Shown here piece after piece: positions 44,269 to 63,200 of a stretch of 64,000 bases of DNA. How positions within the stretch are numbered: the first letter of the stretch is position 1; the number at the start of each line of letters is the position of its first letter. Origin of the DNA: Kiritimatiellia bacterium (GTDB taxonomy: Bacteria > Verrucomicrobiota > Kiritimatiellia > RFP12 > UBA1067); assembly GCA_024405265.1 (NCBI GenBank), contig JAKSOZ010000003.1, forward strand, positions 17,498 through 81,497, given 5' to 3'. A program made the translations under genes and the position numbers. The notes under the pieces were generated by a model. It worked only from the letters and a program-made list of their open reading frames with translations. It was not told the DNA's origin and ran no database searches.

Positions 44269-44865
44269 TCAAATCCTAACCGCCGCTATCGCGCGGCGAA
44301 AACGAATTTTAGCGGCCTCAGGATCTTTCTCGACCCCAAGACGCATGCGGAACGCGGCGGATTCCATTATCGAATAAAGAACGTCCGCCGTATTCTCGGG
44401 ATCAAGCGAACTCTTACACTCTTTATTCTCGATCGCTTCACGAATAAGTTCGGCGAAGACAACTCGCAACTTGCCGGTGAAGAGCTCTATACGCTCGCTC
44501 ATATCATGCCCCGCGTTAACCATTGAGAACACGTAATCGCAGACCGCAGCAAAAAACTCTTTGCGCTCATGGAAGGTCTCGGCGACGAGCGTGCAAACTT
44601 TATCGATTCTTTCGGTAGCCGGGATCCGCTGTTCGCATATAACACGGATATTGTCGCCTAGTCCCTGCGTAAGCTCGCTTATCGCCGCGTCGAAAATATC
44701 ACGTTTTGTAGTGAAGTACCTATAGAGCACGGTTCTGGCGACGCCGGTAGCTTCGGCGATCTCGCGAAACGAAACCTTGGAAAAACCGATTTGAGCGAAT
44801 AGGCGCATTGCCTTCATCACCACCATCCGCTTTCTTTCGGAATGGTCGATAGTCGTCTTAGCCAT
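44269..44865 (-). CDS. TetR/AcrR family transcriptional regulator
   Basis: 198 aa. N-terminal HTH FSKVSFREIAEATGVARTVLYRYFTTKRDIF. Confidence 0.9.
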   Translation of the reverse strand: MAKTTIDHSERKRMVVMKAMRLFAQIGFSKVSFREIAEATGVARTVLYRYFTTKRDIFDAAISELTQGLGDNIRVICEQRIPATERIDKVCTLVAETFHERKEFFAAVCDYVFSMVNAGHDMSERIELFTGKLRVVFAELIREAIENKECKSSLDPENTADVLYSIMESAAFRMRLGVEKDPEAAKIRFRRAIAAVRI

Positions 44866-47526: not shown

Positions 47527-47553
47527 TCTGAATCATTCCCTTAATCTACGTAT

Positions 47554-47562
47554 ATTATACCA
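47554..47562 (-). promoter_or_regulatory. Putative extended -10 promoter (TGGTATAAT) for the acyltransferase gene
   Basis: Minus-strand TTTGGTATAAT overlapping the dapF stop codon. Predicted leader about 21 nt containing the SD. Confidence 0.45.
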
Positions 47563-48364
47563 AATCCGATTCCATAAGAGAATCACAATCTATCTCGCCC
47601 TCGTAAACTTTTTTCACCGGTCCGGTCAAAGTAAGGTTATGAATCTTGTCTTGTTCGACTTCAGCATTGACGATAAGCTCATATCCCTGAATCGTGGTTA
47701 CGCGCACCGGGAACTCAAGTCCGTAATCCATGACTCCGATTACCGCCGAGGCGACCGCTCCGGTTCCGCAGGCTCCGGTTTCCGCTTCGACGCCCCGCTC
47801 GTAAGTGCGAATGGATACGCGCGAAGGCGCTCTGAACGAGACGAAATCGACGTTGGTACCTTCGGGCGCAAACTGCGGTGAGAGCCGAATACGCCGGCCT
47901 TCGCCTTCCACGTCCGTCTTGGCAAGGTTCTCCACGACCACGATCTTATGAGGAACTCCGACAACACAGAAATCGTCCGCCTTGTTTTGAGGATCCGGCA
48001 TCTTGACTCTGACGAGCTCTGCGGAGAGTATTTCCGCCTCGATAACTCCGGCTATCGTCTCAAAGCGCATCTTGTCTTGTTTGGCCGCGCCGATCGAGCG
48101 CGCGAACGCCGCGACGCACCTCGCGCCGTTTCCGCATAGCGCAACCTCGGAGCCATCAGGATTGAAGAAACGCATCTTGAAATCGGCGCTTTCGCTTTTT
48201 TGAACGAGGATGACTCCTTCCGAGCCGATTCCGATTCGTCTGGTGGCCATCGCTGCGATTTTGCGCCCTTCTTCGGGGAATTCGAGCGCTCGGTCATCGA
48301 CCAAAATGAAGTCGTTGCCGGCGCCATGCATTTTTACGAAATGAATCTTCTTCACATCCACCAC
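47555..48364 (-). CDS. dapF: Diaminopimelate epimerase
   Basis: 269 aa. KMHGAGNDFILVD, plus catalytic cysteines in LCGNGARC and ACGTGA. Confidence 0.95.
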   Translation of the reverse strand: MVDVKKIHFVKMHGAGNDFILVDDRALEFPEEGRKIAAMATRRIGIGSEGVILVQKSESADFKMRFFNPDGSEVALCGNGARCVAAFARSIGAAKQDKMRFETIAGVIEAEILSAELVRVKMPDPQNKADDFCVVGVPHKIVVVENLAKTDVEGEGRRIRLSPQFAPEGTNVDFVSFRAPSRVSIRTYERGVEAETGACGTGAVASAVIGVMDYGLEFPVRVTTIQGYELIVNAEVEQDKIHNLTLTGPVKKVYEGEIDCDSLMESDLV

Positions 48365-50394
48365 CCTCTCATAATCGGCATCTCGGAGCCTTTGCTTAGA
48401 CGAATCATATCCGAAAGTATCTTGAACGCTTCGTCTAAAACGACGTCATCTTTCTTACGCTGATTACGATGCAGCTTGGAGCTCTTCTTGCTTTCGCTAT
48501 CGTCCTCGTCATCCTCGTCATCAAGTTCTCGCAATTCACGATCTCTTAACTGCATCCGATAACGCTCCTTCCAGCTCAACGGAGCCGACTCTCTTTCCGA
48601 GAGTTCCAACATTCCGGCGACGTTCTCCAAATGTTTCAAATATCGTTCATCTTTCTCGAGTCGCGCAGCGGAAAGCTTCTTGAGTTCCGAGATATAATTA
48701 TGCGCGTCCCACGCGAGCGAATAGTCCGCTGCGAGAATACGGGTAAACGGCAGCGCGTTCGGAAGTTTATCCTCGCCGATATCAAGCGAATCAAGAAGCG
48801 AGGGTAAGTGGATGTCCGGTTTTACGCCGGCGACCTGTGTGGACCTACCGTCGATTCGATAGAATCTCGCGGTCGTGACCTTCATGGAACCGTACTTTTC
48901 CGGCCCTAACCCCATAACCGTTTGAACCGTGCCCTTACCGTGCGACTTCGAGTCTCCGACGATTATCGCGCGCCCGGTATCTTGAAGATGCGCGGCTACG
49001 ATCTCGGAAGCCGAAGCTGAAAGTCTATCGATCATCACGACGAGCGGCTTGCGGAAAGCTACGGGATTTCCGGGCGGAATCGGAAGCGGCGCGACCGTGC
49101 GAGAATCGCGGATTTGCACTACCGGACCTTGCGCGACGAAAAGCGCCGAAAGCATCACCGCTTCGCGAAGCGATCCGCCACCGTTTCCTCTCAGATCCAA
49201 AACGATTCCTTTCACCGCTTCGGAATTGAAATCGGCGATATACTTGGCGACGTCCATGGCCGCCGAACGATAGCCCTTCTGACCGGGACGTTTATCCATC
49301 GAACCATAGAATGCCGGAAGATAAATATAGCCGAGCTTGGTCGTCGTATTTCCGATCGTCACTCTCTCGACGCGTCCGGTAGCGGCTTGATCTTCGAGAT
49401 CGATTTCATCGCGAGTGAGCTCGTATAGCTTGCGAGTCATGCCGCTCGGATCGCTGCGAGGAATGATTTCCAAAGTGACCTTGCTGCCTTTCGGTCCGCG
49501 AATCTTACGAACCGATTTCTTCATCGGCTGCCACATGATATCTTCAAGTTCTCCATTACCCTCTTTCACGGCGGAGATCTTATCGCCTTCTTTGATTCTC
49601 CCGTCCTTGGCGAGGGGACTGCCGGGCATGATTTCCTCGATCTTAAGCGCTCCGTCATCCATTTGCAACACCGCGCCGATGCCGCAAAGTTTCAGATTCA
49701 TGTCCATATCGAAGTCTTCTTTCGACGCGGGCGAGAAATAGTCAGTATGCGGATCGTAAGTATGGGTAATGGCGCTCAAATACGCCTGAAGGACTTCCTC
49801 TTCATCTCCTTCGGTCATTGCGATCGCGAATTGACGATACTTCTTCACTAAGTTCTCGGCTACATCCACTTCATTTGTGGACTTGTCGATCTCACGATTG
49901 ATTTTCGCGACCAACAGTTCGTTCTTGATGCGCTTACGCCAGAGATCCTCGGCTTCCTCCTTCGTTTCGGGCCACGGCGCTTCCTTACGCTTGAGCCCGA
50001 TCGACTCCTCCACGTTGAAATCCCATACGGCATTAACCAAGAGATTGGTCGCGAAATCGATTCGTTCCTGCAGACGCTTCACATAAAGGTCGCGAACTTC
50101 ATACCCGAAATTCACGTTCCCTGCCAACACTTCATCGTCTATCGTTTTCAAGTGTTTCGAAAGTTCGTCGAGATCGCTCTTGAGGAAGACGCTTCTATCG
50201 AAATCATAATAGGAAACGAGGTTCGTCCAGGCCTTGGCAGAGGCGATATCGTCGAGCGGGGATTGAAGGACATGCGTCAGCGGAATATTCTCCGCCACGC
50301 GCTTGGCGATCTTGCCGTAATAAGGTTTGGGTTTGACTTCCGCCGACAACAGCGACGCTATCAAGCAGAGCGTAAAAGCGAATAATGTTCTCAT
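48352..50394 (-). CDS. Carboxy-terminal processing (tail-specific) protease, S41 family
   Basis: 680 aa. Signal peptide, PDZ domain (IMPGSPLAKDGRIKEGDKI), DLRGNGGGSL, catalytic SASASEI and GKGTVQ. Confidence 0.9.
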   Translation of the reverse strand: MRTLFAFTLCLIASLLSAEVKPKPYYGKIAKRVAENIPLTHVLQSPLDDIASAKAWTNLVSYYDFDRSVFLKSDLDELSKHLKTIDDEVLAGNVNFGYEVRDLYVKRLQERIDFATNLLVNAVWDFNVEESIGLKRKEAPWPETKEEAEDLWRKRIKNELLVAKINREIDKSTNEVDVAENLVKKYRQFAIAMTEGDEEEVLQAYLSAITHTYDPHTDYFSPASKEDFDMDMNLKLCGIGAVLQMDDGALKIEEIMPGSPLAKDGRIKEGDKISAVKEGNGELEDIMWQPMKKSVRKIRGPKGSKVTLEIIPRSDPSGMTRKLYELTRDEIDLEDQAATGRVERVTIGNTTTKLGYIYLPAFYGSMDKRPGQKGYRSAAMDVAKYIADFNSEAVKGIVLDLRGNGGGSLREAVMLSALFVAQGPVVQIRDSRTVAPLPIPPGNPVAFRKPLVVMIDRLSASASEIVAAHLQDTGRAIIVGDSKSHGKGTVQTVMGLGPEKYGSMKVTTARFYRIDGRSTQVAGVKPDIHLPSLLDSLDIGEDKLPNALPFTRILAADYSLAWDAHNYISELKKLSAARLEKDERYLKHLENVAGMLELSERESAPLSWKERYRMQLRDRELRELDDEDDEDDSESKKSSKLHRNQRKKDDVVLDEAFKILSDMIRLSKGSEMPIMRGWWM

Positions 50395-50395
50395 A

Positions 50396-51073
50396 TCAAC
50401 CTCTCAATTCGATTATCCTGACGAGACGTTCTTTTTCATCTTCGGGGAGGATGATGCGCTCGGATGAAAACGCAGACTTGATTTCACAAGAATTAAGCAC
50501 TACCGCTCCTTGAATCTCGGCGATCTTCGCGTTGAACGTATCGGAAGCGAAGACGAGAACCGGCGTGACATCGCCTTTCCAACCCTCCTTCAAGAGGGCG
50601 CTTTTGACATACTCGGCTTCGCGTTTCACTTGCGCGAGCGGAGAACGATCGGGGAGCTTGCCGTTTACGAGAACGAACCCGTCTTCGATCGTTACCTTCC
50701 CGGCCCAACATTTGGTCTCGACGGCGAAGACGCCCGAAGGACCTACGACGACGTGGTCGACATGCTTCCTACCGACGACGAAGTCATTGAATATATGATA
50801 GCTGTCGGGTAGCTTCATTAAAAGTCCGGAAACTCGTTCTTCACCTCTCGCGCCGATAAAGAAGCGCTCGACCTGCTTAAAGCCCCTCGACCAACTCCAA
50901 ATCGCAAATACAAAGGAAATCGCGAGCAGCAATAGCCCCGCTTCGACATTCTTCAAAACGATCGTGGCGATCGAGAATCCGCCTGCCGCGACAGCGAGAA
51001 AGAGCGGCCACAGACCTACCACCACTCCATAAACTCTTGCCCACTCTCCGGCTACTCCATGTACCTTAGCCAT
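50396..51073 (-). CDS. Membrane-anchored NERD (nuclease-related) domain protein
   Basis: 225 aa. Two N-terminal TM helices, then FNDFVVGRKHVDHVVVGPSGVFAVETKCWAGKV, the NERD core pattern. Confidence 0.75.
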   Translation of the reverse strand: MAKVHGVAGEWARVYGVVVGLWPLFLAVAAGGFSIATIVLKNVEAGLLLLAISFVFAIWSWSRGFKQVERFFIGARGEERVSGLLMKLPDSYHIFNDFVVGRKHVDHVVVGPSGVFAVETKCWAGKVTIEDGFVLVNGKLPDRSPLAQVKREAEYVKSALLKEGWKGDVTPVLVFASDTFNAKIAEIQGAVVLNSCEIKSAFSSERIILPEDEKERLVRIIELRG

Positions 51074-52772
51074 TTCTCAGCTCCTCCGTTATTTGTTCGG
51101 CCGAAAAAGAATATTTGATTTCCAGTTCCGCCTGCGAACCGTGAGGTATGTATTCGTCGGGCCATCCGAAACGCTTATCCGCTCCGATCAACTCGCCGAA
51201 GCCTCCGATTATCGAACCGTTTTCGATCGAGACGATGGTTTTACCGGCTTTACGTTGCGCGGCCAATCGCTCGGCATCGAAAGGCTTGATCGTACGCGCG
51301 AACACCACTCCGGCCTTGATCGACGCGGCGATTTCATTAGCCTTTGGAATTTGGTCTCCCGTAGCCCAAATCTGAAGTTTCGCGTTTTCGTCCTCATGCA
51401 CTTCGATCGTTTCGAGCGGAACTTTGCCGCGCGGGTAACGGATTACGGTAGGCCCTTCATAACGAAGCGCCTCTTTTATAAGCGCTCTTAAATCTTCCTT
51501 GTCCTTCGGCTGAACTATCTTGACGTTCGGCAAACACTTCAGCATGGCAATATCATAAAGCCCCTGATGAGTTTTACCGTCATTACCGACGACTCCCGCG
51601 CGATCGACTGCGATCACGACGGGAACGCGCGCTATCGCGAGGTCATGCATAACTTGATCGACGGCGCGTTGAAGGAAGGTCGAATATATCGCGACTACCG
51701 GTTTAAGGCCGCCTTGCGCGAGCCCCGCGGCGAACGCTACCATGTGCCCTTCGGCGATGCCGACGTCAAAGAAACGCTCCGGAAACTCCTTGGCGAAATC
51801 GACGAGCCCGGTTCCGTCCTTCATGGCAGCGGTCAAGGCGACGATACGTTTATCCTGCCGCGCTTCTTCGCTTATGATTTCACCGAACGCCGCCGACCAA
51901 TCTTCCGTCTTCGCCCCCTTGACCGCCTTTTGCTCGGGATCGAACGCGCCTACTCCGTGCCACTTCGTAGGATTCATTTCGGCCGGTTTATAGCCGTAGC
52001 CTTTCTTGGTAACGACATGCACGAGGACACTGCGCTTATCCTCTTTCGCGACCGTGAACGCTTCCTTCAAAGCTTCGAGATCATGACCGTCCACCGGCCC
52101 GATATATCTTAGACCGAAACGTTCGAAGAAGGACGAGCCCAAAAACAGCGACTTCACCCTACTTTCCCAACGATGATAAATATCTCTCAGGAAAGTAAGC
52201 TTGAGCTTGTGCCCGGCGTTTTCCGCGGCGGTTTTGATGCGATTGTACTTAACGCCCGTGATTAAGCGCCCGAGGAACTTGGAGATCGCTCCGGTAGGCT
52301 TGGAGATCGACATCTCGTTATCATTCAGCACGAGAATCACCTTGCGCTTTTCACTGTCACAGAAATTGAGCGCTTCGAAGCTCGTCCCGTTCACGATCGA
52401 ACTATCGCCGATAACCGCGACGACGTGCTCTTTCGTTCCCTTCAGGTCACGGGCAGCCGCGTAACCCTCGGCAATCGAAAGCGCCACGCCGGCGTGTCCG
52501 GCGATCGCGGCGTCCGCCTTCGATTCGAGCGGATTCGAAAACGGAGAAACTCCGCCTAGGGAACGAATCGTATCGAACTTCTCGGCACGATCGGTCAATA
52601 TCTTCCACGCATAAGCTTGATGACCGACGTCCCAAATTATTCTGTCGACATAAGGATCGAAGACTTCGCTTAAAGCCTTGGCGATCTCGACGGCTCCGAG
52701 CGATGAAGCGAGATGACCGCCGTTTTTAGCTACGGCTCCAATGATGATCTTTCTGATTTCTTCTGCGGTCAT
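51066..52772 (-). CDS. dxs: 1-deoxy-D-xylulose-5-phosphate synthase (short N-terminus)
   Basis: Start set at ATG 52772 (ATGA overlap with the upstream stop). GGHLASSLGAVE, GDSSIVNG and NDNEMSI are DXS motifs. About 25 aa shorter at the N-terminus than typical DXS. Confidence 0.9.
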   Translation of the reverse strand: MTAEEIRKIIIGAVAKNGGHLASSLGAVEIAKALSEVFDPYVDRIIWDVGHQAYAWKILTDRAEKFDTIRSLGGVSPFSNPLESKADAAIAGHAGVALSIAEGYAAARDLKGTKEHVVAVIGDSSIVNGTSFEALNFCDSEKRKVILVLNDNEMSISKPTGAISKFLGRLITGVKYNRIKTAAENAGHKLKLTFLRDIYHRWESRVKSLFLGSSFFERFGLRYIGPVDGHDLEALKEAFTVAKEDKRSVLVHVVTKKGYGYKPAEMNPTKWHGVGAFDPEQKAVKGAKTEDWSAAFGEIISEEARQDKRIVALTAAMKDGTGLVDFAKEFPERFFDVGIAEGHMVAFAAGLAQGGLKPVVAIYSTFLQRAVDQVMHDLAIARVPVVIAVDRAGVVGNDGKTHQGLYDIAMLKCLPNVKIVQPKDKEDLRALIKEALRYEGPTVIRYPRGKVPLETIEVHEDENAKLQIWATGDQIPKANEIAASIKAGVVFARTIKPFDAERLAAQRKAGKTIVSIENGSIIGGFGELIGADKRFGWPDEYIPHGSQAELEIKYSFSAEQITEELRNG

Positions 52773-54148
52773 TCTTTTTTCTTCAAAATGAGTAGCGTGG
52801 TGGAGTTCTGCCCGAAGCGTTCCTTCGTCGAGGCGAGAACATAACGATCTTTGACCAACTCCCAAGTTGCGAGTTGCTCTTCGAGCGAACGTTCATTCCC
52901 CTTCGGAACTTCGATCGCGAAAGCGTAACCGCTGAAAGCGGCCACTTTCGCCGTCTCTCCCTCCAGAAGTTCTTTCCAATACAGCAAATCGACATCGGAG
53001 AACGGTCCCATCGCGAGTCTTCTCGGTACATGGCGATTGGTCTCGACGGCGAGATAAGTATCCTCCGTCAAGAGTTCCGTTCCTTCCGGATCCAGAGCTT
53101 CGATTTCACGTGCCGCTTCTCGCAACATCGCGAGCTCACTCTTCGGCTTCATGATCGTCCAGAAGCGATCCTGCCCGTCGCTTGTCCACTTCTCCAAGAG
53201 CGGAGAGCCGAACGAAATCGCGAGCGCTAGGCCTAGCGTCATAAGCTCGGCGCGATCCGTTTTGATATTGATCGCGGCGAAAACGGCGAGTAGCGACATT
53301 ATCGGAACTTGATAATCTTCATACGGATGAGGAGCGAAAAGATGAATGAGGAAGACGACGGCGAACGCGAGCGCCAGGAAACGCGAGCGCTTGAAGTCTC
53401 CGAGCCCGAGAACTATGAAAATCGGAAGATAAAATCTCACGAGGCGACTCAAAGAGCCGACGATCATCACGGGGCTGAAACCCTCGCGCGCGGCATGATA
53501 ACCGATCGCCTTAAGTAGCCCCGGCTCAGCGGTGAAGTCGGTCATGAACCAGCCGAAAACCGCGCCCAGAGTAATGATCGCGCCGATAATGAACGCGTTG
53601 AATGACTCGATTCGGCGATGAATGAACAGGTAGATGGCGATTACGACGAGCAGCGCCGCGAGCGAAAATCTCGTCGCTCCCGCGAGTGCGAGCATAACGC
53701 CGGAAAGGAAATGGAATTTCTCGAACGTAAGAAGATAAAATCCCACGGCGATGAAAAGCGACGCGAGCGCGTAGGTCTTCGGGATCGTAAGATAATACAC
53801 GTGATAGAGATTTACCGCGAGCAACAAGAACGTAATCGAGAACGCGGATTTCTTTTGCCCTTCGTCCGCCAAACGACGCGCCGTCAAGGCCGAAAACATG
53901 ATACCGAGAGCTCCTAACGAGAGCGTGACGACGCGAGCTCCGAGAAGCCCGAAGTTCTTCCAAGCCGATGAAAACGCCGCGTAGACGTAAGGCATAATCG
54001 GACCCTGCGTGAAATCGAAATCCACGAACGGGACGAGCCCCTCGGATACGAGATTCGCCGCGTAAAGATACCACCCCTCGTCCTGGTTAAGTCCTCCGAA
54101 CCAGATAGCGGCCGCGCCGAGTATAAGGAAGGCAACGATTCCGATCAC
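52769..54148 (-). CDS. GT-C type membrane glycosyltransferase (ArnT/PMT_2-like, tentative)
   Basis: 459 aa, about 10 TM helices. N-terminal loop motif NQDEGWYLYAA is typical of ArnT/PMT-like enzymes. Soluble C-terminal domain. Confidence 0.55.
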   Translation of the reverse strand: MIGIVAFLILGAAAIWFGGLNQDEGWYLYAANLVSEGLVPFVDFDFTQGPIMPYVYAAFSSAWKNFGLLGARVVTLSLGALGIMFSALTARRLADEGQKKSAFSITFLLLAVNLYHVYYLTIPKTYALASLFIAVGFYLLTFEKFHFLSGVMLALAGATRFSLAALLVVIAIYLFIHRRIESFNAFIIGAIITLGAVFGWFMTDFTAEPGLLKAIGYHAAREGFSPVMIVGSLSRLVRFYLPIFIVLGLGDFKRSRFLALAFAVVFLIHLFAPHPYEDYQVPIMSLLAVFAAINIKTDRAELMTLGLALAISFGSPLLEKWTSDGQDRFWTIMKPKSELAMLREAAREIEALDPEGTELLTEDTYLAVETNRHVPRRLAMGPFSDVDLLYWKELLEGETAKVAAFSGYAFAIEVPKGNERSLEEQLATWELVKDRYVLASTKERFGQNSTTLLILKKKE

Positions 54149-55203
54149 TCGCCGACCTCCAAGCTGGGGTTCACGTCGATAGAGAACGCGCCTTCGACTT
54201 TATTTCGACGATAGTATCCTAAAGCCGCGATCATCGCGCCGTTGTCTCCGCAATACTTCGGCTTCGCCATCAAGATCGGAATTTTCGCTTTCGCGGCGAC
54301 CTCGGAAAGGACTTCGCGAAGACGCGAATTGAGCGAAACGCCCCCTCCGATCAAAAACGCTTTATAATCGCGAAGCTTCAGCGCGTTACGCGTACGGTCC
54401 GCAACCGCCTGAACGATCGCCTCTTGGTAAGAAGCGACGATTCGAGGAATTTCTCCCTCGTCAGTAAGCTTTTCCACGCCTCCGTTTTGTTGGACATAGC
54501 GCAAGAGCGCGGTCTTAAGGCCGGAGAAGCTGACGCAAAGCTCGGCTCTAAGCCCCGAAAGCGCGCTCACGCCTTCACGCGGGCGTCCCTTCGGGAACGG
54601 AATCATCTCCTTATCGCTATGATTTTCACGCCACTCTTTCGCGATTTTATCGACTTTCGGTCCGCCGGGATAGCCGAGTCCTAAGAGCTTAGCGGCTTTA
54701 TCGAAAGCTTCTCCCGCCGCGTCGTCCAAGGTCTGCCCGATAATTTCATATTTTCCGTAGCTCGGAATATCGATCCAGTTCGTATGCCCGCCGGAGATCG
54801 CGAGGCCTAAAATCGGGGTCATCGTCTCAGGCTCGATTTCCGCATCGAGAAACGGAGTATGCAAATGCGCTTCGATATGATTGATCGGAATTAGCGGAAC
54901 GCTCAAAGCTTTGGCGAGACCTTTCGCCGCGTTCAATCCGACGATCAAGGCAGGAGAGAGTCCCGGCCCGTAAGTTACCGCTACCGCGTCGATCTTCTTC
55001 TCACTCGACGATTCGATCGCCGCGCTTACGACTTCTCGAATCTTCTCGACATGCGCGCGAGAAGCCAGCTCCGGCACGACTCCTCCATAAGGAATATGAA
55101 GCGGGATTTGCGTGTAGACGATATTCGAGAGTACCAGATGACCGTCTTTAACGATCGCGGCCGCTGTCTCGTCACAGCTCGTCTCTATACCTAAGATATT
55201 CAT
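54145..55203 (-). CDS. tsaD: tRNA N6-adenosine threonylcarbamoyltransferase
   Basis: 352 aa. ILGIETSCDETAAA, HIEAH metal site and GGVSLN. Confidence 0.95.
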   Translation of the reverse strand: MNILGIETSCDETAAAIVKDGHLVLSNIVYTQIPLHIPYGGVVPELASRAHVEKIREVVSAAIESSSEKKIDAVAVTYGPGLSPALIVGLNAAKGLAKALSVPLIPINHIEAHLHTPFLDAEIEPETMTPILGLAISGGHTNWIDIPSYGKYEIIGQTLDDAAGEAFDKAAKLLGLGYPGGPKVDKIAKEWRENHSDKEMIPFPKGRPREGVSALSGLRAELCVSFSGLKTALLRYVQQNGGVEKLTDEGEIPRIVASYQEAIVQAVADRTRNALKLRDYKAFLIGGGVSLNSRLREVLSEVAAKAKIPILMAKPKYCGDNGAMIAALGYYRRNKVEGAFSIDVNPSLEVGE

Positions 55204-56027
55204 TACCAGAATTTATACCAAGGATTCTTCTTGGGGGCGACCGACTTTTCCTTGTAGAGCTCCCTGACTCTTTGAGTGCCGGCCGTCTCCGGATCTTGAA
55301 CGGCAGTACGCGTTCTGAACATAAGCTGATCGGGGATCGACCAGAATTCGCTACGAACGAACTGATCGGCGTTAAGACGATGAAGAATAATGACTTCGCC
55401 CGTTTTCAAGACGGAGATCGTCGGCTTGTCGATTCTTAAAATCGGTCCTAAATCGCGAGTCGCCCAGGCGCGGTCACTATCGCCCGAATCCTGCGCCCCA
55501 AGGAAGAGATGTTCCTGTCCGCAGCGCATCCAGTGATAAAGCGTAAGATCACGTCTCAAATTCGGGCGATTGGCAAAAAGTTGAGTAGCTTGGGCGACCT
55601 TGATTCCCTTAACGAGATCGAACGCGCGGAACATACCCTCGTAGCGAATGCCGCGGTGAACGAGAACCGGGCGAGCGAGATACTTGCTTTCATGTTTAAG
55701 CGCGTAGTGATCGGCGAGGAACGTCTCGAGCTTCTGTCCTTCTCCGCTTTCAAGCGAGAAGTCGGCGACGAAGACACGCTTCGAAATCGAATCCATCAAA
55801 TACATATCGCTCGCGCGGTACACTTCGATAAAGAAGCGATCGGTTTTGCTCGTCTTGCTGACGTCGATTTTATCGGAGGAGTAATTGGCGATATCGACGA
55901 CGCCGCGAATTCTTTCGCCGATAAGGAAATCGGTCGAATCGAGTCTTAAATCGACTTTGATTTCGCTCTCTTGTGCCATGACTGAGAGCGCGGCGAAAAG
56001 TGCGGCGAAAAGAATCTTGATTTTCAT
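55203..56027 (-). CDS. Hypothetical secreted protein
   Basis: Start set at MKIKILFAALFAALSVMAQE (signal peptide, ATGA overlap with the upstream stop). No family recognised. Confidence 0.6.
   Translation of the reverse strand: MKIKILFAALFAALSVMAQESEIKVDLRLDSTDFLIGERIRGVVDIANYSSDKIDVSKTSKTDRFFIEVYRASDMYLMDSISKRVFVADFSLESGEGQKLETFLADHYALKHESKYLARPVLVHRGIRYEGMFRAFDLVKGIKVAQATQLFANRPNLRRDLTLYHWMRCGQEHLFLGAQDSGDSDRAWATRDLGPILRIDKPTISVLKTGEVIILHRLNADQFVRSEFWSIPDQLMFRTRTAVQDPETAGTQRVRELYKEKSVAPKKNPWYKFW
55212..55220 (-). promoter_or_regulatory. Putative extended -10 promoter (TGGTATAAA), near-leaderless tsaD
   Basis: Minus strand reads TGGTATAAA-TTCTGGTA-ATG (ATG 55203). It lies inside the last codons of the upstream gene. 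Confidence 0.4.
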
Positions 56028-56785
56028 AATTCGATCTCCAATCCGTCGTATGCGGGCTCGACGCCCTCGGGTAATACCTTGAGCCACTCGGCGTGAGAGA
56101 CGTCGTGGCACATGTGAATCAAATACGCTTTCTTCGGCGCGATCTTTTCCAAATACTCAAGCGCCGCGTCCTTGTTGAGGTGAGTCGGATGAGGGCGAAA
56201 TCTGAGGCAATTGAGAATCATCACCTCGACGCCCTTGAAAGCTTCGATCGCCTCGTCCGACAATTCATGGCAATCCGAAACATAGCCGAGTTTCTCGTCG
56301 ATCACGTACCCGCTGCAAGGGAAATTATGCTCGACTTTCACGCGCTTGAGCGTCATATCGCCGATCTTGAACTCATCATCGGCGACGAAATTGATCATAG
56401 GCCTGAAGAGCCCCATCGTGTTTTGCTTATCGGAAATATACGGAAAGATACGATGCATCTGTTCGACCGTCTCTTCCGCAGCGAAACACCTCATCGCCGC
56501 GCCCCCGTTCAATGTATTGAACCGCCTCACGTCATCGAAGCCCGCGACGTGATCCATGTGGGCATGAGTAAGGACTACCGCGTCCACTTTATCGATACCG
56601 TATTCGAGCGCGGCGACGCGCATTTCGGGGGGAGTATCGAGCAAAAACGCAGCCGCGTCAGAACGCACGTAAGCGCCGCATCTGCGGCGCTTATCGCGCG
56701 GGTCGGTCGAGGTGCAAACGGGGCAGTCGCAACCGATTTGCGGGACCCCGACCGATGTTCCCGTTCCTAGGAACTTAAAGGTCAC
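56024..56785 (-). CDS. MBL-fold metallo-hydrolase (PhnP-like)
   Basis: 253 aa, GTG start. FLGTGTSVGVPQIGCDCPVC and LTHAHMDH (HxHxDH). Confidence 0.82.
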   Translation of the reverse strand: MTFKFLGTGTSVGVPQIGCDCPVCTSTDPRDKRRRCGAYVRSDAAAFLLDTPPEMRVAALEYGIDKVDAVVLTHAHMDHVAGFDDVRRFNTLNGGAAMRCFAAEETVEQMHRIFPYISDKQNTMGLFRPMINFVADDEFKIGDMTLKRVKVEHNFPCSGYVIDEKLGYVSDCHELSDEAIEAFKGVEVMILNCLRFRPHPTHLNKDAALEYLEKIAPKKAYLIHMCHDVSHAEWLKVLPEGVEPAYDGLEIEL

Positions 56786-56786
56786 T

Positions 56787-58190
56787 TTACTTTACCAACT
56801 CCTTGGCAGGTTCTTCCTTTTCTTCTTCCTTCGCCGCTTCCTTCGCTTTTTCCTTCGCATTCGAAGAGAAGAAAGCTTCGATTTCCTCGAGCGTCTTACC
56901 CTTCGTCTCCGGCATGAAGAAGGTCGCCGTGACGAAGTAGATCACCGTGAAGAACGCGAGCGTGAAGAAGACCCAAGCGTAACCGACGGCATTGACCCAA
57001 GGGTAGAAGACCGACGCGATGGTCGTGGAAACACCCTGGTTGATGAGAAGCGCGATCGCCATACCGTTCGCACGAATACGCGCGGGCATAAGTTCCGACA
57101 AGGCGAGCCAGACGCAAACGCCGGGGCCCGAAGCGAAGAAGCCGATGAAGACCATGAACGAAATCGCGGTCGCCCAGCCGGTTACCTGACTCGCGGCGCA
57201 AATACCGTGCTCAATTGCGAAGAACGAGCCGCCGACGCCCAAAAGACCGACGATAATGCCGAGAGTACCCATCTTAAGGAGGAACTTACGGCCCTTCATA
57301 TCGACGAGCGAAACGGCGACGATAGTCATAACGAGGTTGACGATCTTGATCGCGGTATCGGCATAGTTCGCGACGATGCCGGGAAGACCCGACTTATTGA
57401 AGATATCGACCGAGTAGTTGAGAACCGAGTTGATACCGGTAGCCTGCGTGCAAGCGAGAACGACAACCGCGAGGCAGAACGGCCAAATGTACTTCTTCTG
57501 GAAGAGGCTGTCCTTGGGTCCTTCAACTTTCGTTTCTTCACCCTCACCTTCAATCTTCACCCCGGCCTTCTTGGCGAGCCAAGTCGGAGATTCCTTGAGG
57601 CCGAAGATACCGGCGAGGAAGATGACGCCAGGAATCGCGGAGAGCCAGAAGACGGTCTTCCACGCGGTAACCTTGGTCGCGGCGGAAACGGTTTCAGCAT
57701 CCGCGGCGCCGAAGAACTTGGTGACGCCGACGCCCACGAGAGCCATGAAAACGAGACCGATCGTCAAAAAGAGTTGAAAGAGACCCGTGCCCTTGCCGCG
57801 CTGATCAGCGGGGAGACATTCCGCGAGGTACATCGGGATAACGACGCCGAGAAGACCCGCCGAAGCGCCCTGAACGAAGCGGCCGGCGACCATCACGCCG
57901 TAGTTACCGTCCGAGAAAACGATCATCGGAATCGAAGAAAGAAACACGATCGAGCCGATAAGAATCGTTTTCTTGCGACCTAACCAATCGGCAAAAACAC
58001 CGGCAGGAAGCGAACCGATAACCGAGCCGAAGAGAACCGCGCCGACGACCGTAGAAAGCGCCGCTTCGGAGAAGTAGTTAAGAGCTTTGATGTACGGAAG
58101 CGCGGAAGCGATCGCTCCGACGTCGATACCGTAAAGAAGACCACCGAGGCCAGCCATGCTCATCAAATAAATGATGTAACGCTTGTTCAT
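56787..58190 (-). CDS. MFS sugar porter family transporter
   Basis: 467 aa, 12 TM helices. DWLGRKK, PMYLAECLPADQRGKG and PETKGKTLEEIE are sugar-porter signatures. K/E-rich C-terminal tail. Confidence 0.9.
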   Translation of the reverse strand: MNKRYIIYLMSMAGLGGLLYGIDVGAIASALPYIKALNYFSEAALSTVVGAVLFGSVIGSLPAGVFADWLGRKKTILIGSIVFLSSIPMIVFSDGNYGVMVAGRFVQGASAGLLGVVIPMYLAECLPADQRGKGTGLFQLFLTIGLVFMALVGVGVTKFFGAADAETVSAATKVTAWKTVFWLSAIPGVIFLAGIFGLKESPTWLAKKAGVKIEGEGEETKVEGPKDSLFQKKYIWPFCLAVVVLACTQATGINSVLNYSVDIFNKSGLPGIVANYADTAIKIVNLVMTIVAVSLVDMKGRKFLLKMGTLGIIVGLLGVGGSFFAIEHGICAASQVTGWATAISFMVFIGFFASGPGVCVWLALSELMPARIRANGMAIALLINQGVSTTIASVFYPWVNAVGYAWVFFTLAFFTVIYFVTATFFMPETKGKTLEEIEAFFSSNAKEKAKEAAKEEEKEEPAKELVK

Positions 58191-58231
58191 TTTATGTTCG
58201 TTCCTTATTTTGGGATGAATATTTATTTTAT

Positions 58232-58240
58232 ATTATATCA
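58232..58240 (-). promoter_or_regulatory. Putative extended -10 promoter (TGATATAAT) for the MFS transporter
   Basis: Minus-strand TTTGATATAAT in an AT-rich gap. Predicted leader about 35 nt with AAGGAA SD. Confidence 0.5.
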
Positions 58241-58269
58241 AATTTTCGCGTTCTCGCCTATCCCCTTCG

Positions 58270-58593
58270 GTGGGCAATACGAAGATAGACCTATCCGGCC
58301 CGAACGAGGTACGTTCAGTCTATGCCGACCGGGAAGTCGAGAACATTCTTCAAGCTGAAGGTTCACCGCATTTACTGCCATACTTGCGGCAAGGAGTATC
58401 ACGAATCTTTTCCATTCCGGTCCTCAATGTGCATCTCGGATATCTCGCGTCTCTATTCAAAGAATGGATTTCCTTGGCTTCGGAGATTCCTGAGGTGATA
58501 GCAGCCGGGCAGATGGTCGAGAGACATCTCACGGGCATTCTCGGGTACTGGGAAGTTCAAGCGCTCGTCAAGTGCCTCAATAGAAGGATCTAA
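58270..58593 (+). pseudogene. ISL3-family transposase remnant (C-terminal fragment, decayed)
   Basis: The only plus-strand coding signal. ...KEWISLASEIPEVIAAGQMVERHLTGILGYWE...LVKCLN resembles the ISL3 C-terminus (...W.....I..F......R....GIL.YF...TN...EG.N.K). The downstream shifted frame reads GKVRWLMKQAY, like the KIK..KR.AYG tail. There is no N-terminal or DDE part. Confidence 0.5.
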
Positions 58594-58636
58594 CGGGAAA
58601 GTAAGATGGCTAATGAAGCAGGCCTATAGCTAAGCC

Positions 58637-58797
58637 TTACCTTAGGCAACCTCTACAACTCGCCTTAGGCGACACCTCCAAGTTGCCTTAGGCGACTTCA
58701 CAACTTCGCCTAAGGCGACTTCATCACTTCGCCTAAGGCGACATCGACAACTCGCCTAAGGCGACATTATAAACTCGACTAAGGCGACTTTCAGCCA
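58637..58797. repeat. Tandem array of 7 x 23 bp with palindromic core TCGCC-TWA-GGCGAC
   Basis: The CCTWAGG core recurs at 58640, 58663, 58686, 58709, 58732, 58755 and 58778, an exact 23-bp phase. Each unit has a 14-bp conserved core and a 9-bp semi-variable tail ending AAC(T). Non-coding. Confidence 0.9.
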
Positions 58798-58879
58798 CGT
58801 ACCGGCGCACACCGTCGTCTTACCCGCGAGACAGTCCCCAATAGTAATTATCATCTAGGACGCTGCCCTAGCTTCACAA

Positions 58880-59947
58880 TCAAAGTTGTTCTACTTTAAG
58901 TTTTCCTCTCTCATCAACCTTAAAGTATAGCGCGTAACAATTACGCTCGCAATGCTCGGGCATACACGAAGAAGCTTCCCGCTGATCGCGATGCTCGAGC
59001 GTAGGCGAAGGTTCTGGCGACTGATCGCGATGCTCGGGCAGTGCCCGAGCAATCTTAACGATCTCGTCATTAAGCTCCAAACACGCCCCCCGCGAGAAAT
59101 CGACCTCCTCATTACCCTCCGCTATCTCTAAATACCGATTCTCGAGGAACGCGTCGATATAGACGCTCTCTGGTTTATAATCTATCGGCATCCTATTAGG
59201 CAGTATTCTGATGAATTTCGCGCTCGAACTTTTCGCGAGCATATCTCTCACCGCTCGCTCTCCAGGGCTGATAAAACCACTTATTATGACAAAACCCTGT
59301 TCGACCGCGTTCTCCATTCGCGTGACAATCTCGTCAATCATCTTAGCCGTACATTTTCGCGATATTCTTAACGAAACGAACTTTTCTTCGTTCAACAGCG
59401 CCAGATTTCCCACCCCTTTCCAATAATCATCCCGATCCAAGCGGAATGAATCGATTGGTTCTTTGATCCGAAGCGCTTCCGGGCGATTATGCATTAGCTC
59501 ATACTTGGCCGGATTATACGCGATATATCGCGCAGTTGCTTCGATTTTCTTTCTCTTTAAGCAAAGATGATCGTGGTATCCCTGCTGCCATTTGAGCGGC
59601 GGATTTGCCGCGATATCTTTGGAATAGCGAATAAGATGGTTTTTGAAGCCCGCAATCGCCTTACCGAGGTTTTTCAACGGCTCCGGCAAGTTCGGGAGTA
59701 TTCGTATATTGAAATGGACGTGATCCGGCATGACGACTCGTTCAAATAGCTGCAAGCCATCCGTTTTTATCGGAAGTTGCGCTAGAGTACGCTCAACTTC
59801 TCGTCCAAGCTCGTTCAGAATCACCTTACCATCGACGATCTTTCCGAAATATTCGCCTCTTGGATTTGTGGTGATTGTAACGAAAAGCATCGCACCATTC
59901 GAATAATCCCACTTCTTAAATCGTCGATAGAAATGTATCTCGGCCAT
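58880..59947 (-). CDS. IS200/RAYT-like HUH (Y1) nuclease fused to a C-terminal DprA/SLOG-like domain (tentative); tail encoded by 39-bp repeats
   Basis: N-terminal LFVTITTNPR..., VVMPDHVHFNI (HUH), WQQGYHDHLCL and ARYIAYNP are COG1943-type transposase motifs. Residues about 185-300 (RISRKCT..., GFVIISGFISPGERAVRDML, FIRILPNRMPIDYKPES, LEIAE) resemble the DprA Rossmann core. Residues 303-340 are 13-aa repeats (EHRDQ...). Confidence 0.75.
   Translation of the reverse strand: MAEIHFYRRFKKWDYSNGAMLFVTITTNPRGEYFGKIVDGKVILNELGREVERTLAQLPIKTDGLQLFERVVMPDHVHFNIRILPNLPEPLKNLGKAIAGFKNHLIRYSKDIAANPPLKWQQGYHDHLCLKRKKIEATARYIAYNPAKYELMHNRPEALRIKEPIDSFRLDRDDYWKGVGNLALLNEEKFVSLRISRKCTAKMIDEIVTRMENAVEQGFVIISGFISPGERAVRDMLAKSSSAKFIRILPNRMPIDYKPESVYIDAFLENRYLEIAEGNEEVDFSRGACLELNDEIVKIARALPEHRDQSPEPSPTLEHRDQREASSCMPEHCERNCYALYFKVDERGKLKVEQL
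58943..59055 (+). repeat. 3 x 39-bp tandem REP-like repeat ending in a perfect hairpin (59032-59050)
   Basis: The GCTCGGGCA-type motif occurs at 58954, 58993 and 59032. The last unit, CTGATCGCGATGCTCGGGCA-G-TGCCCGAGC, is a 9-bp-stem palindrome. The array lies inside the 3-prime end of the HUH gene, in frame (13 codons per unit). Confidence 0.85.
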
Positions 59948-59956
59948 ATGTTAGAA

Positions 59957-59965
59957 ATTATATCA
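59957..59965 (-). promoter_or_regulatory. Putative extended -10 promoter (TGATATAAT), near-leaderless HUH gene
   Basis: Minus strand reads TGATATAAT-TTCTAACAT-ATG (ATG 59947). Confidence 0.45.
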
Positions 59966-60030
59966 TAAGCTCACACTTCCCGCAAACGAAACCTCTCGAG
60001 ACTCGCGGCTCGCAGACAGAGCTCATACCG

Positions 60031-60180
60031 CAGATTGCGATACTCGGTCGTACGCGAATGAGCTACCCTCAGATCGCGCTACTCGGGCGAAGCGTTAGTC
60101 TCGCCTCCCTGATCGCGCTGCTCGGGCGAAGCGTTAGTCCCCTCGCTCTGATCGTGATGCTCGGGCAATGCCCGAGCTAA
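60031..60180 (+). repeat. 4 x 39-bp tandem REP-like repeat ending in a perfect hairpin (60159-60177)
   Basis: Motif at 60042, 60081, 60120 and 60159, an exact 39-bp phase. The last unit, CTGATCGTGATGCTCGGGCA-A-TGCCCGAGC, has the same stem as the copy at 59032. Same orientation as the left array. Confidence 0.85.
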
Positions 60181-60209
60181 CAACAAGCGCCGCGGAGTGC
60201 GCGGCGCTT
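60178..60209 (-). terminator. Stem-loop terminator downstream of the giant surface-protein gene (possibly bidirectional)
   Basis: AAGCGCCGCG-GAGTG-CGCGGCGCTT is a perfect 10-bp GC-rich stem, 38 nt after the stop at 60247. The minus-strand tail is GUUGUUA. The plus-strand tail GUGUUGGUUUUGUU is more U-rich. Confidence 0.5.
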
Positions 60210-60246
60210 GTGTTGGTTTTGTTAGATTTCAGCCATTGACATTGAG

Positions 60247-63200
60247 TTACTTAGTCGCCTTGACGCTGACCTTGTAGTACTTCACCTTATTGTCTCCGGT
60301 GAAGGTCATCGGGATCGAGACCGTCTTCGCCTCGCCGCTCGTCGCCTGATCGCCAGAGCCGGTCGCGCTTTCAAACGTACCATCAGGCGTATCGCACGAC
60401 GAAACCGCGTAGAAGAGACCCGGAATCGGGTTCGTGATCGTGAACTGAACCTTATCCGTCGATTCCTCAGTCGGCGCGGCCATTGTCGTAACCGCCGGTT
60501 GGGTCGTCTGATCATCCTTCAGCGTCGTCGTGATCGTGCCATCTGCGGTCGTAACCGTGCAATAGTCCGTCACATCGTACGCCGAACCGCTTCCGGTCGC
60601 GCTCGGGATCTTGACGGTAATCGTTGTCGGCGCAGTGCCCGTATAGGTTGCTTCCTGTCCGGGAACGAGGGAAACCTCCGTCGTACCCTGCGGGATGACA
60701 ATCTCCGGCGGCACACCGCCGTTCTGCATCAGCTCATAGACCTTAGCCAAGCCAACCTCATTGTAAACGACGCTGTAGCCATCAACTGTGGTCGTAACCG
60801 TGCCAGTGGCAGATGCAACCGTTGCTTTCGACGCTGTAGCCGTCAGAACAAGATTACCAGCGATCGTACCCGAACCTGTAATCGTACCGGCGACTTCAAC
60901 GCCACCGACCGACGTCCAGATCTTGCCCGAGCCGATTGTAACCGTCTTGCCGCTATTAACGACAATCTTACCATCGTTCGCGGCAGTTCCGGAATCGCCG
61001 ATCGTAACGCGAAGATTCGCGGCATCGATATTACCAGTGAAGCCCTCGACACTCTTAAGGAGGATGTTCGCCGTAGAACCGGCACGCGAATTAACCTTGA
61101 GCGTACCCGAGCCGGTAACCTTGAGGCCATAGTTGTAGCCGTTGGAACTATCGCCGATCCATAGAGCCGGTTCATCATTGGCATCAACGAGTTCAACCGT
61201 CGGGCCGAAATCGCCGCCGTTAGCAAGCCAACCGACGTTGCCGGTAGTAATCACTGTCGAGCTGGCATTGCCGTAAGCATTAATGTTGAAGTTCGGGCAA
61301 GTATAGCCACCTGTCGCGCTTTCGCTGTCAGTCTTTCTGAAGGACTTCTTCAAATAAACGCTTCCGTTCCATGTATTCGCCTGGAGGCTCGTCTGAACAG
61401 CGTCAGAAGGAACGCGCTGATCATAAATGAGCTTACCATTACCCGTCAGCTTGGCCGTACCGCCAATTGTTCCTTCGATGCGAATACCTCCGGTCTTCTC
61501 GGCCTGTCCCCAGGTGCCTTCACCATTAAGAGTCAGATCGCCAAGAATGGCATTATCATGATGATCGTTATTCCAAAAGCCGAAGAGGACACGCGCACCG
61601 GAATCGATTGTAATCATCGATCCGTTCGGCATATTCTTGTTTCCGTTCGACTCCCAATCATCATGACCGAAAGTCACCGTCGCATTGTTCGTGACCTTAA
61701 TCTTTAAGGGATCAGCAGGAGCATAGTCCTTCGAGACATAAACCGCTGTTGTCTCGTTGAAAACAACAGTATCATCCGCCGTACGCGTCGTTGCGGCAGT
61801 CTTTGCCTCGTCGGCATAGAACGTCACATTAGCATCCCACGTGTTATTATTCGTGCCGGTACCTTCCTTCCAATAGATTTCGGTTGTATTGCGCTTCGCA
61901 CGGAAGTAATAGCTACCGCCCTCGTAAACAAGACCACCGGTAATATAAGACGGATAATCGGGCTTCAGAAGTTGAATCTTCTCATTGTTCGACGCAATAA
62001 CACCCGTCAACTGGAGATCGACCGGCTGATTCAAAATCAGCGCACCAGTCAGCGACGAGAAGTCAAAAATGATCTTACCATTATCACCAAGCTCCGTCGG
62101 ACCACCGGTAAAGTCAAGCGCTCCATGCTCAATCTTGACCGTCGTATTAACTTCGATCTGTCCAGCCTTGATCATATTGGCCGTCGTCTCGGCAACATCT
62201 GCTGTGAAGGTAACCGTACCCGTACCGTTAATCGTGAGCTTTTCGTACGAAGCGGGAGCCGTAAGGTTATTCGCAACCGTTACGTTCCCTTCGGTCGTCA
62301 ACACCACTGTCTGATTTTCATTCGGCTTGTCGGCCTGCGTCACCGTACCATCCTTCGATGTCAGCGTCCACGCATCCGTCTTGACCCAGTCATCATCCTC
62401 GGTAATCGTGCGCGTTGCCGTGCCATTCAGAGAGGTATACGGGAATTCATCCGCAAACGCCTTAATCGCCTTCTCGCTCAACTGGCAATCAAAGATACGA
62501 ACCGCCGAGATTGTCGAATTTGCCGCCGTCGTATCCGTCGGCTTCACAAGGCCCGTCGAGCCGACACCGCCATGCACCGAACCAACCTGCAAGCTCGAAC
62601 CGAACGACACATTCGAAACCGCCTGCTCGGCCCAATACTTGCCATCGAGATAAACGATAATCGATGTGGCAGTCTTCACAAAGCCATAAGTATGACGTGT
62701 CTCACGCGCATTCGTCACCGTCATCGGATTACCGATGACCGAATAAGCGCTGTTACCCGTCGTACGGACAAGAATAACCTCATTCGGTGAGGTGCCGGCT
62801 GCAAGGCCGATAAGTCCTCCATCTCTCGTACCAAAGGCAATCAATACGCCCTTATTCACATTCGGTACGACGCCGGCGACCAAGCAGGTCCAGGTTGTCG
62901 GATACGAGACCGTAAAGTCTGAATACGGCGTTGCCGGCGTCTTAATCGCCAAGTGATTGTCCGTAAAGCCATTGGATTGCGAGTAACCGGTATCCCAATG
63001 AAGACTATTCGTATTCTTACCCGTGCTCGCCAGATTGCGATCATAAAGGAACGTCCAATCGTAAAGCGCAGCCGTATTCTTAACAACGGGAGTAATCGGA
63101 GTCGTTCCGTTTCCGACCTGAATTTCCGTACCATCAGGCATCACGACAGGTATCTTCACATCGTCGCCAAGTCCCTGGATCGTAATCGAGCCCTGAATCA

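Follow-up and report, generated by a model that had tools for sequence, protein, structure and literature searches.

We report a tandem array of seven palindromic 23-bp units in a stretch of 64,000 nucleotides (nt) from a Kiritimatiellia bacterium (assembly GCA_024405265.1, contig JAKSOZ010000003.1). This whole stretch is called the window below, and all positions refer to it. The array, at 58637 to 58797, is real and non-coding, and its palindrome and its phasing are shown to be constrained, with linkers that have drifted almost to randomness. Our preferred reading, which we hold tentatively and with somewhat more doubt than conviction, is that it represents a locus-specific, locally amplified palindrome array that evolves in concert and resembles, at the DNA level, repetitive extragenic palindromic (REP) elements and bacterial interspersed mosaic elements (BIME). 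Judging from the sequences compared, the array appears to belong to a geometric kind that recurs in the intergenic DNA of Kiritimatiellae, with about seven units of 22-23 bp and a different palindrome in each case. It also seems to share a stretch of acquired or mobile DNA, about 1.9 kb long, with a gene for a HUH-DprA protein resembling the REP-associated tyrosine transposases (RAYT), the hairpin repeats of that gene and a truncated ISL3 transposase.

Such an array would have originated by tandem duplication and would be kept uniform by concerted evolution, the cores presumably being homogenised through their ability, as palindromes, to pair among themselves within one strand. The working part would be the palindromes, which would act on DNA in the manner of REP and BIME elements. 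Single-stranded or supercoiled DNA would let them fold into hairpins or cruciforms, and they could serve as binding sites for host proteins or as landing sites for insertion sequences (IS). This reading is supported by the non-coding, constrained core, by the position of the array in a lineage-specific block of lower GC content beside a broken IS and a RAYT-like gene, and by compensatory arm changes in related arrays, namely purine/pyrimidine (R/Y) variants at locus L092 and three mirrored pairs between the alleles of loci L096 and L098.

Sequence, phasing and distribution of the array

The array and its two halves are laid out as follows.

58637..58797, unstranded: tandem array in which seven 23-bp units follow one another head to tail; a unit consists of a 13-bp palindrome (TCGCCTWAGGCGA) and a 10-nt linker with few G on the + strand
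58637..58705, unstranded: array units 1-3, central base T (TTA type); unit 1 degenerate
58706..58797, unstranded: array units 4-7, central base A (TAA type); unit 7 degenerate

The units start at 58637, 58660, 58683, 58706, 58729, 58752 and 58775, giving six spacings of 23 bp without an indel. Tandem Repeats Finder recovered the same period of 23 over 58640-58788 (6.5 copies, 77% matches, score 140). The seven phased units described by the first-pass annotation, which had been made from the letters of the window, are thus borne out, as are its conserved near-palindromic core with a variable tail and its switch of the central triplet from TTA in units 1-3 to TAA in units 4-7, the latter read from the unit sequences. 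The clearest way to write the conserved element is as the 13-bp odd palindrome TCGCCT-W-AGGCGA, whose six pairs (T-A, C-G, C-G, G-C, C-G, T-A) enclose the switching centre and whose T/A pair beside that centre is invariant. Departures from consensus affect 8 of 91 core positions versus 26 of 70 linker positions (Fisher p = 2.5e-5), and the earlier division into 14 + 9 bp gives the same contrast with p = 8e-7. Mean pairwise identity among units is 0.86 in the core and 0.40 in the linker, for a random expectation of 0.25. These 34 substitutions stand alongside zero indels in 161 bp.

The enrichment is local. CCTWAGGCGAC, allowing at most one mismatch, matched the window 14 times versus 1.55 +/- 1.26 expected, a count reached by 0 of 100 shuffles, and 12 of these matches fall within the array. 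Both end units are degenerate; in unit 1 the degeneracy amounts to one symmetric change from C-G to T-A plus one mismatch. Linkers are depleted of G on the + strand (3 of 70 positions, p = 4e-5) and their tail consensus is ATCAACAAC. The statement that the tail keeps an AAC(T) end stands for units 1, 5 and 6, which do end in AAC, and fails for the others. A further degenerate unit on either side of the array (a 'unit 0' or 'unit 8') was not supported by eye: the left side agrees at 9 of 23 positions and the right side at none.

No open reading frame (ORF) spans the array, as had been stated; two - strand ORFs of 25 and 32 aa overlap part of it. Reasoning from the unit sequences, a period of 23 bp brings each reading frame to a stop within about three units. 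Single-strand folding is strong on both strands (z about -9), with cores pairing between different units. The predicted folds join unit 3 to unit 4 and unit 2 to unit 5, pairings helped by the switch of the central base. Within one strand, the pairing between T-type and A-type cores is perfect, which makes the whole array an imperfect inverted repeat centred near 58706-58712.

Folds this favourable, together with linkers that are G-poor on one strand, are also what a structured RNA would display, that is, a multi-hairpin untranslated region or a small RNA. We consider this very improbable. No Rfam family matches the array, apart from two sub-threshold chance hits, and no convincing promoter-terminator pair surrounds it. 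The variant units, as read from their sequences, favour neither strand consistently. Finally, four sister arrays, described below, lie upstream of promoters in spacers that look untranscribed by position.

A promoter-like site was seen within the array. The linker of unit 6 makes a TATAAT with a weak -35 (CTGAAA, 17-nt spacer) at 58766-58794 on the - strand, facing the ISL3 remnant and the neighbouring transporter gene. It has no TG extension, unlike the other promoter-like sites read by eye, upstream of the HUH and transporter genes of the window and in L004, L087, L092 and L096.

The array sequence is so far unique to this lineage. Pairs of neighbouring cores about 23 bp apart were looked for in 185,579 species-representative genomes, which yielded two chance hits only, both coding Ala/Lys repeats with a 24-bp period. 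The same search gave none in the JGI metagenomes and a single match in IMG/VR, again a coding 24-bp repeat. No match was returned by blastn against 72,556 plasmids and 50,697 phages. Within the window and about 1 Mb of fetched loci, the 13-mer is confined to the array. The only DNA reached through look-ups of the window's own proteins was L003, from the same sample and identical to the window.

A lineage-specific block with a RAYT-like gene and its hairpin repeats

The surroundings of the array hold the following features.

58245..60182, unstranded: lineage-specific block, from the conserved terminator of a gene for a 2135-aa protein to the conserved promoter of an MFS gene; GC 45-50% versus 54-58% in the flanks
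58270..58636, + strand: ISL3-family transposase remnant, frameshifted and internally deleted, ending where the array begins
58855..58872, - strand: hairpin just after the HUH stop codon (CTAGGgcagcgtCCTAG), a compensated variant of GCTCGGGCAnnGCCCGAG, which stands at the same place in L004, L005 and L006
58880..59947, - strand: HUH gene, for a 355-aa HUH/Y1 (RAYT-like) protein fused to a DprA-like domain
58943..59050, - strand: the HUH gene's 3' end carries three 39-bp units in frame; the hairpin GCTCGGGCAGTGCCCGAGC occupies 59032-59050
60031..60177, - strand: upstream of the HUH gene, a further three to four 39-bp units of this family, ending in the hairpin GCTCGGGCAATGCCCGAGC at 60159-60177

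Along the - strand the order is the 3' end of the 2135-aa gene, its terminator, the 39-bp repeats, the HUH gene, the hairpin, the array, the ISL3 remnant and then the promoter and gene of the MFS protein, a sugar transporter. The homology of relatives stops at both edges (58245 and 60182), and the 1.9 kb in between therefore constitute a lineage-specific block. On the transporter side, the closest relative available (L087, with an MFS protein 96% identical) has an alignment with the window that covers 46751 to 58245 and ends there, and no array lies upstream of its MFS gene. On the other side, the autotransporter-like 2135-aa gene has its 3' end at 60247 and its terminator at 60183-60211; a 73%-identical homologue displays the same kind of terminator followed by unrelated genes. 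Synteny traced through both genes thus delimited the block and revealed no orthologous array in relatives. The wider neighbourhood is chromosomal, with genes for the MFS transporter, TsaD, Dxs and similar proteins in synteny with other Kiritimatiellae contigs. Homologues of the MFS protein likewise place the organism in the Kiritimatiellae.

The IS next to the array is dead. After frame correction, the C-terminal piece of the remnant matches positions 183-228 of the 240 in the DDE_Tnp_ISL3 profile (E = 1.5e-5), and it stops inside the DDE domain, exactly at the array start. At the opposite edge of the block, a 25-nt stretch from the 3' end of the 2135-aa gene (AAGGTGAAGTACTACAAGGYCAGCG, encoding KVKYYKVS; window 60258-60290) recurs as non-coding sequence in L006, at about 1146-1170, just downstream of an HUH homologue. 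The Logan contig of the window's own sample breaks at 60258-60290, which suggests that this stretch is repeated in the genome.

The HUH gene encodes the HUH motif MPDHVHF and the Y---NP motif RYIAYNP, both invariant in 32 homologues. Its protein matches NCBIfam NF047646 (REP_Tyr_transpos) with E = 1e-12 and 48 bits, below the 80-bit cut-off, and it is therefore RAYT-like and not an equivalog of that family. In an AlphaFold model (pLDDT 85), Foldseek assigned to the N-terminal domain the fold of Escherichia coli TnpA-REP (4er8, template modelling score, TM, 0.61) and to the C-terminal domain a DprA-like fold (4ljl and 5mll, TM 0.50). DprA is a protein that binds single-stranded DNA. The best structural match of the DprA-like Rossmann domain is ShosA of the Shosta defence system, followed by the DprA of Helicobacter pylori. 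As modelled, the protein is thus a class-2 TnpA-Y1 in the sense of PMC6006769, with an extra domain of DprA fold.

This family is large (768 matches, mostly on contigs of 1-2 kb), and its genes appear to be colonised by hairpin repeats of their own. Homologues are commonly embedded in tandem hairpin repeats with a period of 18-45 bp, within 20-400 bp on either side (L004, L012-L015, L017, L020 and L096), and the flanking units often also occur in frame inside the gene (L012-L015, L017, L020 and L096). Such sites were recorded at 58943-59050 and 60031-60177 in the window, at 379-452 in L012, at 1355-1465 in L014 and at 19609-19636 in L096. In the HUH protein of the window, the in-frame units give an insertion beginning ARALPEHRDQ, which is present only in the four closest homologues. 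The gene of the window is flanked and invaded by a GCTCGGGCAnTGCCCGAGC hairpin in 39-bp units that is conserved in L004-L006. In the window and these loci, its three closest relatives (74-91% identity), the cognate element is GCTCGGGCAnnGCCCGAG, with or without ATCGCGATCAG. It is conserved at two places, within the gene and directly past its stop codon, and shows compensatory variants.

The possibility that the array is a substrate or product of this adjacent enzyme was weighed against this background. Its units would be single-strand hairpins that are bound or cleaved, and the array would have been built by repeated adjacent insertion. The array does end 82 bp from the HUH stop codon (58880), as the first-pass annotation had measured. 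The modelled enzyme would combine a RAYT fold with a DprA-like fold suited to single-strand binding, and its family is generally embedded in hairpin arrays. The 74%-identical homologue at L004 likewise has a 23-bp palindrome array no more than 400 bp away. Nevertheless, around the gene in the window, L004, L005 and L006 the conserved hairpin is GCTCGGGCAnnGCCCGAG and not the array core. The link to the HUH gene drawn earlier is not supported. The core of the L004 array is unrelated and that array lies on the other side of the gene, with a promoter-terminator unit between them; L006 has no array; and the arrays of L092 and L096 have no adjoining HUH gene. We therefore regard the reading as a substrate or product of the enzyme as quite improbable. 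The half-site GGCGAC does recur at 59016-59021, as had been noted.

Downstream of the HUH homologue at L006, positions 1200-1296 resemble by eye a thiamine pyrophosphate (TPP) riboswitch (CTGAGA...ACCC...CTGATCAGGGTAATACCTGCG).

Arrays of the same build in related Kiritimatiellae

Arrays of the same build and with other palindromes, of about seven units of 22-23 bp, recur in contigs of related Kiritimatiellae. At L004, at least five 23-bp units with the core GTGTTGSGCAACAC lie 380 bp upstream of the 74% HUH homologue, parted from it by another promoter-terminator unit. L092 contains eight 22-bp units with the core AAGTCRTAGGCAYGACTT and compensatory R/Y variants, just upstream of the nusB promoter, and no HUH gene was found in this 21-kb locus. 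L088 has three units of 22 bp and three of 23 bp between an IS481-like gene and the next promoter. The L096-L105 arrays, of seven 22-23-bp units each, are placed between tsaD and a gene for an HU-like protein. The sister arrays lie upstream of promoters or between divergent genes, and two of them adjoin IS or HUH genes. In the non-redundant Kiritimatiellae sequence that was read, they occur about once per 35 kb. The combination of a conserved core and a drifting linker was also recovered at L004 (p = 2.8e-5) and L098 (p = 4.3e-6).

The spacers of this lineage gather several unrelated hairpin repeats. The nusB-dnaX spacer of L092 (2440-2740) contains three copies of the hairpin GGACGAGCTTCTGCTCGTCC and a run of CCCCGTT repeats. 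At L004, a second array adjoins the 23-bp array (175-253 and 290-480) with 21-bp units and the palindrome TTCAAA-N6-TTTGAA; it is followed by a short unit composed of a promoter, a structured region and a terminator, and then by the HUH gene. Some arms are common to arrays at unrelated loci and in different species. TCGCC..GGCGA is found in the window (58660-58672, 3-nt centre) and in L098 (8-nt centre), and AGTCA-N6-TGACT is found in L092 and L096. This sharing may reflect chance, for which a rough estimate is 1-15%, or a limited repertoire of arm types.

At the L096/L098 locus the array exists as two alleles, in strains with flanks of 98-100% identity. Each of the seven units differs from one allele to the other (56-68% identity), and three arm positions change together with their mirror positions (GAGTCAGATATCTGACTC versus TCGCCACATATGTGGCGA). 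As far as these sequences go, the pattern shows concerted evolution with two-fold symmetry preserved. The downstream gene also differs between these two haplotypes, in its HU-like DNA-binding domain (aa 51-123; Pfam HU-DNA_bdg 26-113), and the 230 bp between the array and this variable segment are identical. This hints at co-evolution of protein and array, in what is a single event at a locus other than that of the window. The array of this locus (L096 14158-14320, L098 14162-14322) is flanked by a 13-bp inverted repeat, GGGTCAGGGAAGG / CCTTCCCTGACCC. Around the window array, a weak match of about 10 nt (TGGCTnAnGAAG / CTTTCAGCCA) was the sole candidate for a similar pair and was judged unconvincing.

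The turnover of whole alleles between near-identical strains could also belong to a functionless minisatellite, a junk tandem duplication whose cores would be alike only through mutual pairing with repair or gene conversion. The array is unique to its lineage and lies in a non-conserved block; its edge units are degenerate, as unequal exchange predicts; and its predicted folds are dominated by pairing between cores of different units. What makes this account rather improbable is that the same geometry (22-23 bp, about seven units, about 160 bp) recurs with unrelated cores, that indels are missing across 161 bp, that the linkers are so strongly depleted of G on one strand, and that palindromy survived the three compensatory pair changes between L096 and L098.

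The same data can be read in terms of protein binding. Under this alternative, the array would be operator- or iteron-like and private to its locus, with seven phased two-fold-symmetric duplex sites bound cooperatively by a putative dimeric protein, which implies a regulatory or architectural role in the chromosome and not one in replication or partition. The perfect 13-bp odd palindrome, including the invariant T/A by its centre, fits such sites, as does a 23-bp spacing kept indel-free despite heavy divergence of the linkers. Sister arrays stand just upstream of promoters, and at L096/L098 the array alleles go with alleles of the HU-like DNA-binding domain across an identical interval. However, no gene for a duplex-DNA-binding protein flanks the array in the window, its neighbours being a single-strand-DNA-fold enzyme, a dead transposase and a transporter. 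An HU-like binder was also considered and rejected, no homologue being present in the 64-kb window. The regulator to which the first-pass annotation had pointed is the following.

44269-44865, - strand: TetR-family regulator, 13.8 kb from the array

Its distance, and the lack of any core copy near the gene, remove that link. In addition, the array is missing from the MFS upstream region of L087, a separate core in each array would call for many cognate proteins, and the co-variation at L096/L098 is a single event in which linkage may be involved. We hold protein binding at duplex sites to be unlikely, if worth serious attention, because no gene in the vicinity offers a candidate binder and the nearest relative lacks the array.

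A broader proposal is that Kiritimatiellae chromosomes contain arrays of a separate and so far undescribed class, about 160 bp long with seven units of 22-23 bp, that serve as locus-specific recognition arrays, and that the window array is one of them. The palindrome would differ from array to array and might come from a limited set of arm types (TCGCC..GGCGA in the window and L098; AGTCA..TGACT in L092 and L096). Whole alleles would turn over with their symmetry kept and in co-variation with the DNA-binding domain of a neighbour, and recognition would fall to co-evolving proteins or to HUH-DprA single-strand enzymes. We consider this class improbable as a whole.

Several observations weigh against our preferred account of a locally amplified, REP/BIME-like palindrome array. 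No dispersal of the core was seen, neither the 64 kb covered of its own genome nor the fetched loci containing a further copy, and it has neither a GTAG nor a CGTC tag. The hairpin kept around the HUH gene across four related loci is not this palindrome. With arrays about once per 35 kb in the spacers of the lineage, the placement of this one beside an HUH gene is not statistically compelling. The T/A pair by the centre is invariant, though a hairpin with a 3-nt loop does not need it, and such strict 23-bp phasing is commoner where sites are read on duplex DNA. A head-to-tail layout is rare among REPs (PMC3733652). REP/BIME-like action is, moreover, a proposal made from sequence.

The significance of the arrays depends on which of these accounts applies. 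If they are only REP/BIME-like debris, they make a modest addition to what is known of palindromic repeat arrays, in a poorly studied phylum of gut and rumen, and show such arrays gathering around RAYT-like genes and dead insertion sequences. If instead their geometry, their compensatory turnover and their co-variation with a DNA-binding domain reflect function, they would offer a tractable natural case of concertedly evolving specificity between protein and DNA, or between enzyme and hairpin. The HUH-DprA fusion, with its own repeats in frame in its gene, is a candidate enzyme of single-strand DNA processing.

Comparison with known repeat systems

The first-pass annotation had called the array iteron- or centromere-like. 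The R6K gamma origin has seven 22-bp iterons, F sopC consists of 43-bp repeats each with a palindrome, and R1 parC is a repeat-type centromere. Like the iterons of theta plasmids, the array consists of several phased direct repeats of about 22 bp (here 7 x 23 bp) with a conserved core and variable spacers, and like F sopC it has an inverted repeat within each unit. This part of the claim, a non-coding array with a dyad core, phasing and similar geometry, stands, and geometry is all that favours iterons of a plasmid or phage, a centromere for partition or a set of transposase-binding sites at the end of a transposon. The remainder does not stand. In contrast to those systems, the array is chromosomal, in synteny and among housekeeping neighbours, and comes with neither a replicon nor an initiator gene; an AT-rich or DnaA-box region and a partition operon are missing as well. 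The approximately 16 kb annotated around it contain no gene for Rep, ParA, ParB or ParR, and no parA/parB or parM/parR operon lies between 46.7 kb and the window end (64 kb). The sole HUH protein beside it has a Y1-transposase/RAYT fold, and the plasmid, phage and IMG/VR searches gave nothing beyond the coding repeat mentioned above.

It had been set out beforehand that an array with no second occurrence and no conserved neighbour would refute the claim, and this is largely what emerged: the core was found nowhere else and the neighbours are not conserved. A tie to a conserved neighbour gene likewise failed to appear. The core search found no other arrays, no array lies downstream of the HUH homologues of L004 or L006 (L005 ends too early to tell), and the MFS gene of L087 has none upstream. 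An array of transposase end-binding sites, as also considered at first, would resemble the ends of Tn7 or Mu. There is, however, a single array with no inverted partner, and the adjoining ISL3 remnant stops at 228 of 240 in the DDE profile, short of its own end; the array was thus ruled out as the right end of this element. The whole replicon, centromere and transposon-end interpretation is already largely refuted, and we judge it extremely improbable.

The array is not a CRISPR. Its conserved core measures 13-14 bp, its linkers are 9-10 bp long and mutually related, and no cas gene was found in the same annotation of about 16 kb. Bacterial minisatellites, or variable-number tandem repeat (VNTR) loci, are locus-specific tandem arrays. 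The array resembles them in its locus specificity, its degenerate edge units and its signs of concerted evolution. It departs from them in pairing an almost invariant palindrome with near-random linkers, in a geometry that recurs across unrelated arrays and in a palindromy that is kept by compensatory changes.

The closest likeness is to REP sequences, BIMEs and the REPtrons formed around RAYT (TnpA-REP) genes, which comprise short GC-rich intergenic palindromes beside Y1 HUH genes (PMC2817692, PMC3116915, PMC3733652, PMC6006769). As a hairpin, the array palindrome TCGCC-TWA-GGCGA has a 5-bp stem and a 3-nt loop (six formal pairs) and folds with z about -9. REP stems of 5 bp have been described, and the stem of the array is at the short end of the described range (PMC3733652). 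REPs reiterated in tandem with their flanks, and REPs inside genes, have also been described (PMC3733652, PMC3116915, PMC2817692), and a passage of PMC8450116 reports an insertion sequence inserted into REP sequences. As in a REPtron, the RAYT-like gene beside the array has its own flanking and in-frame hairpin repeats; unlike in a REPtron, the gene is flanked by GCTCGGGCAnTGCCCGAGC in 39-bp units and the 13-mer of the array is not among them. The array flanks (..AAC|TCGCC and GGCGA|C(A/T)TC) have no conserved GTAG or CGTC at the foot of the hairpin. In contrast to BIMEs, all seven units run head to tail with a fixed 23-bp period and drifting linkers, and only the central base flips, between units 3 and 4. 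As regards dispersal, no copies of the core lie outside the array within the 64-kb window, which is the sole part of the genome checked. The neighbour gene has the HUH motif, the Y---NP motif and the RAYT fold, with an extra DprA-like domain and a score of 48 bits for a cut-off of 80. Collectively, the preferred account has the array working like a BIME, yet on the available evidence it is a member of no described REP family, and it is neither an origin nor a centromere. It is best filed among the palindromic intergenic repeat arrays, as a variant of that kind.

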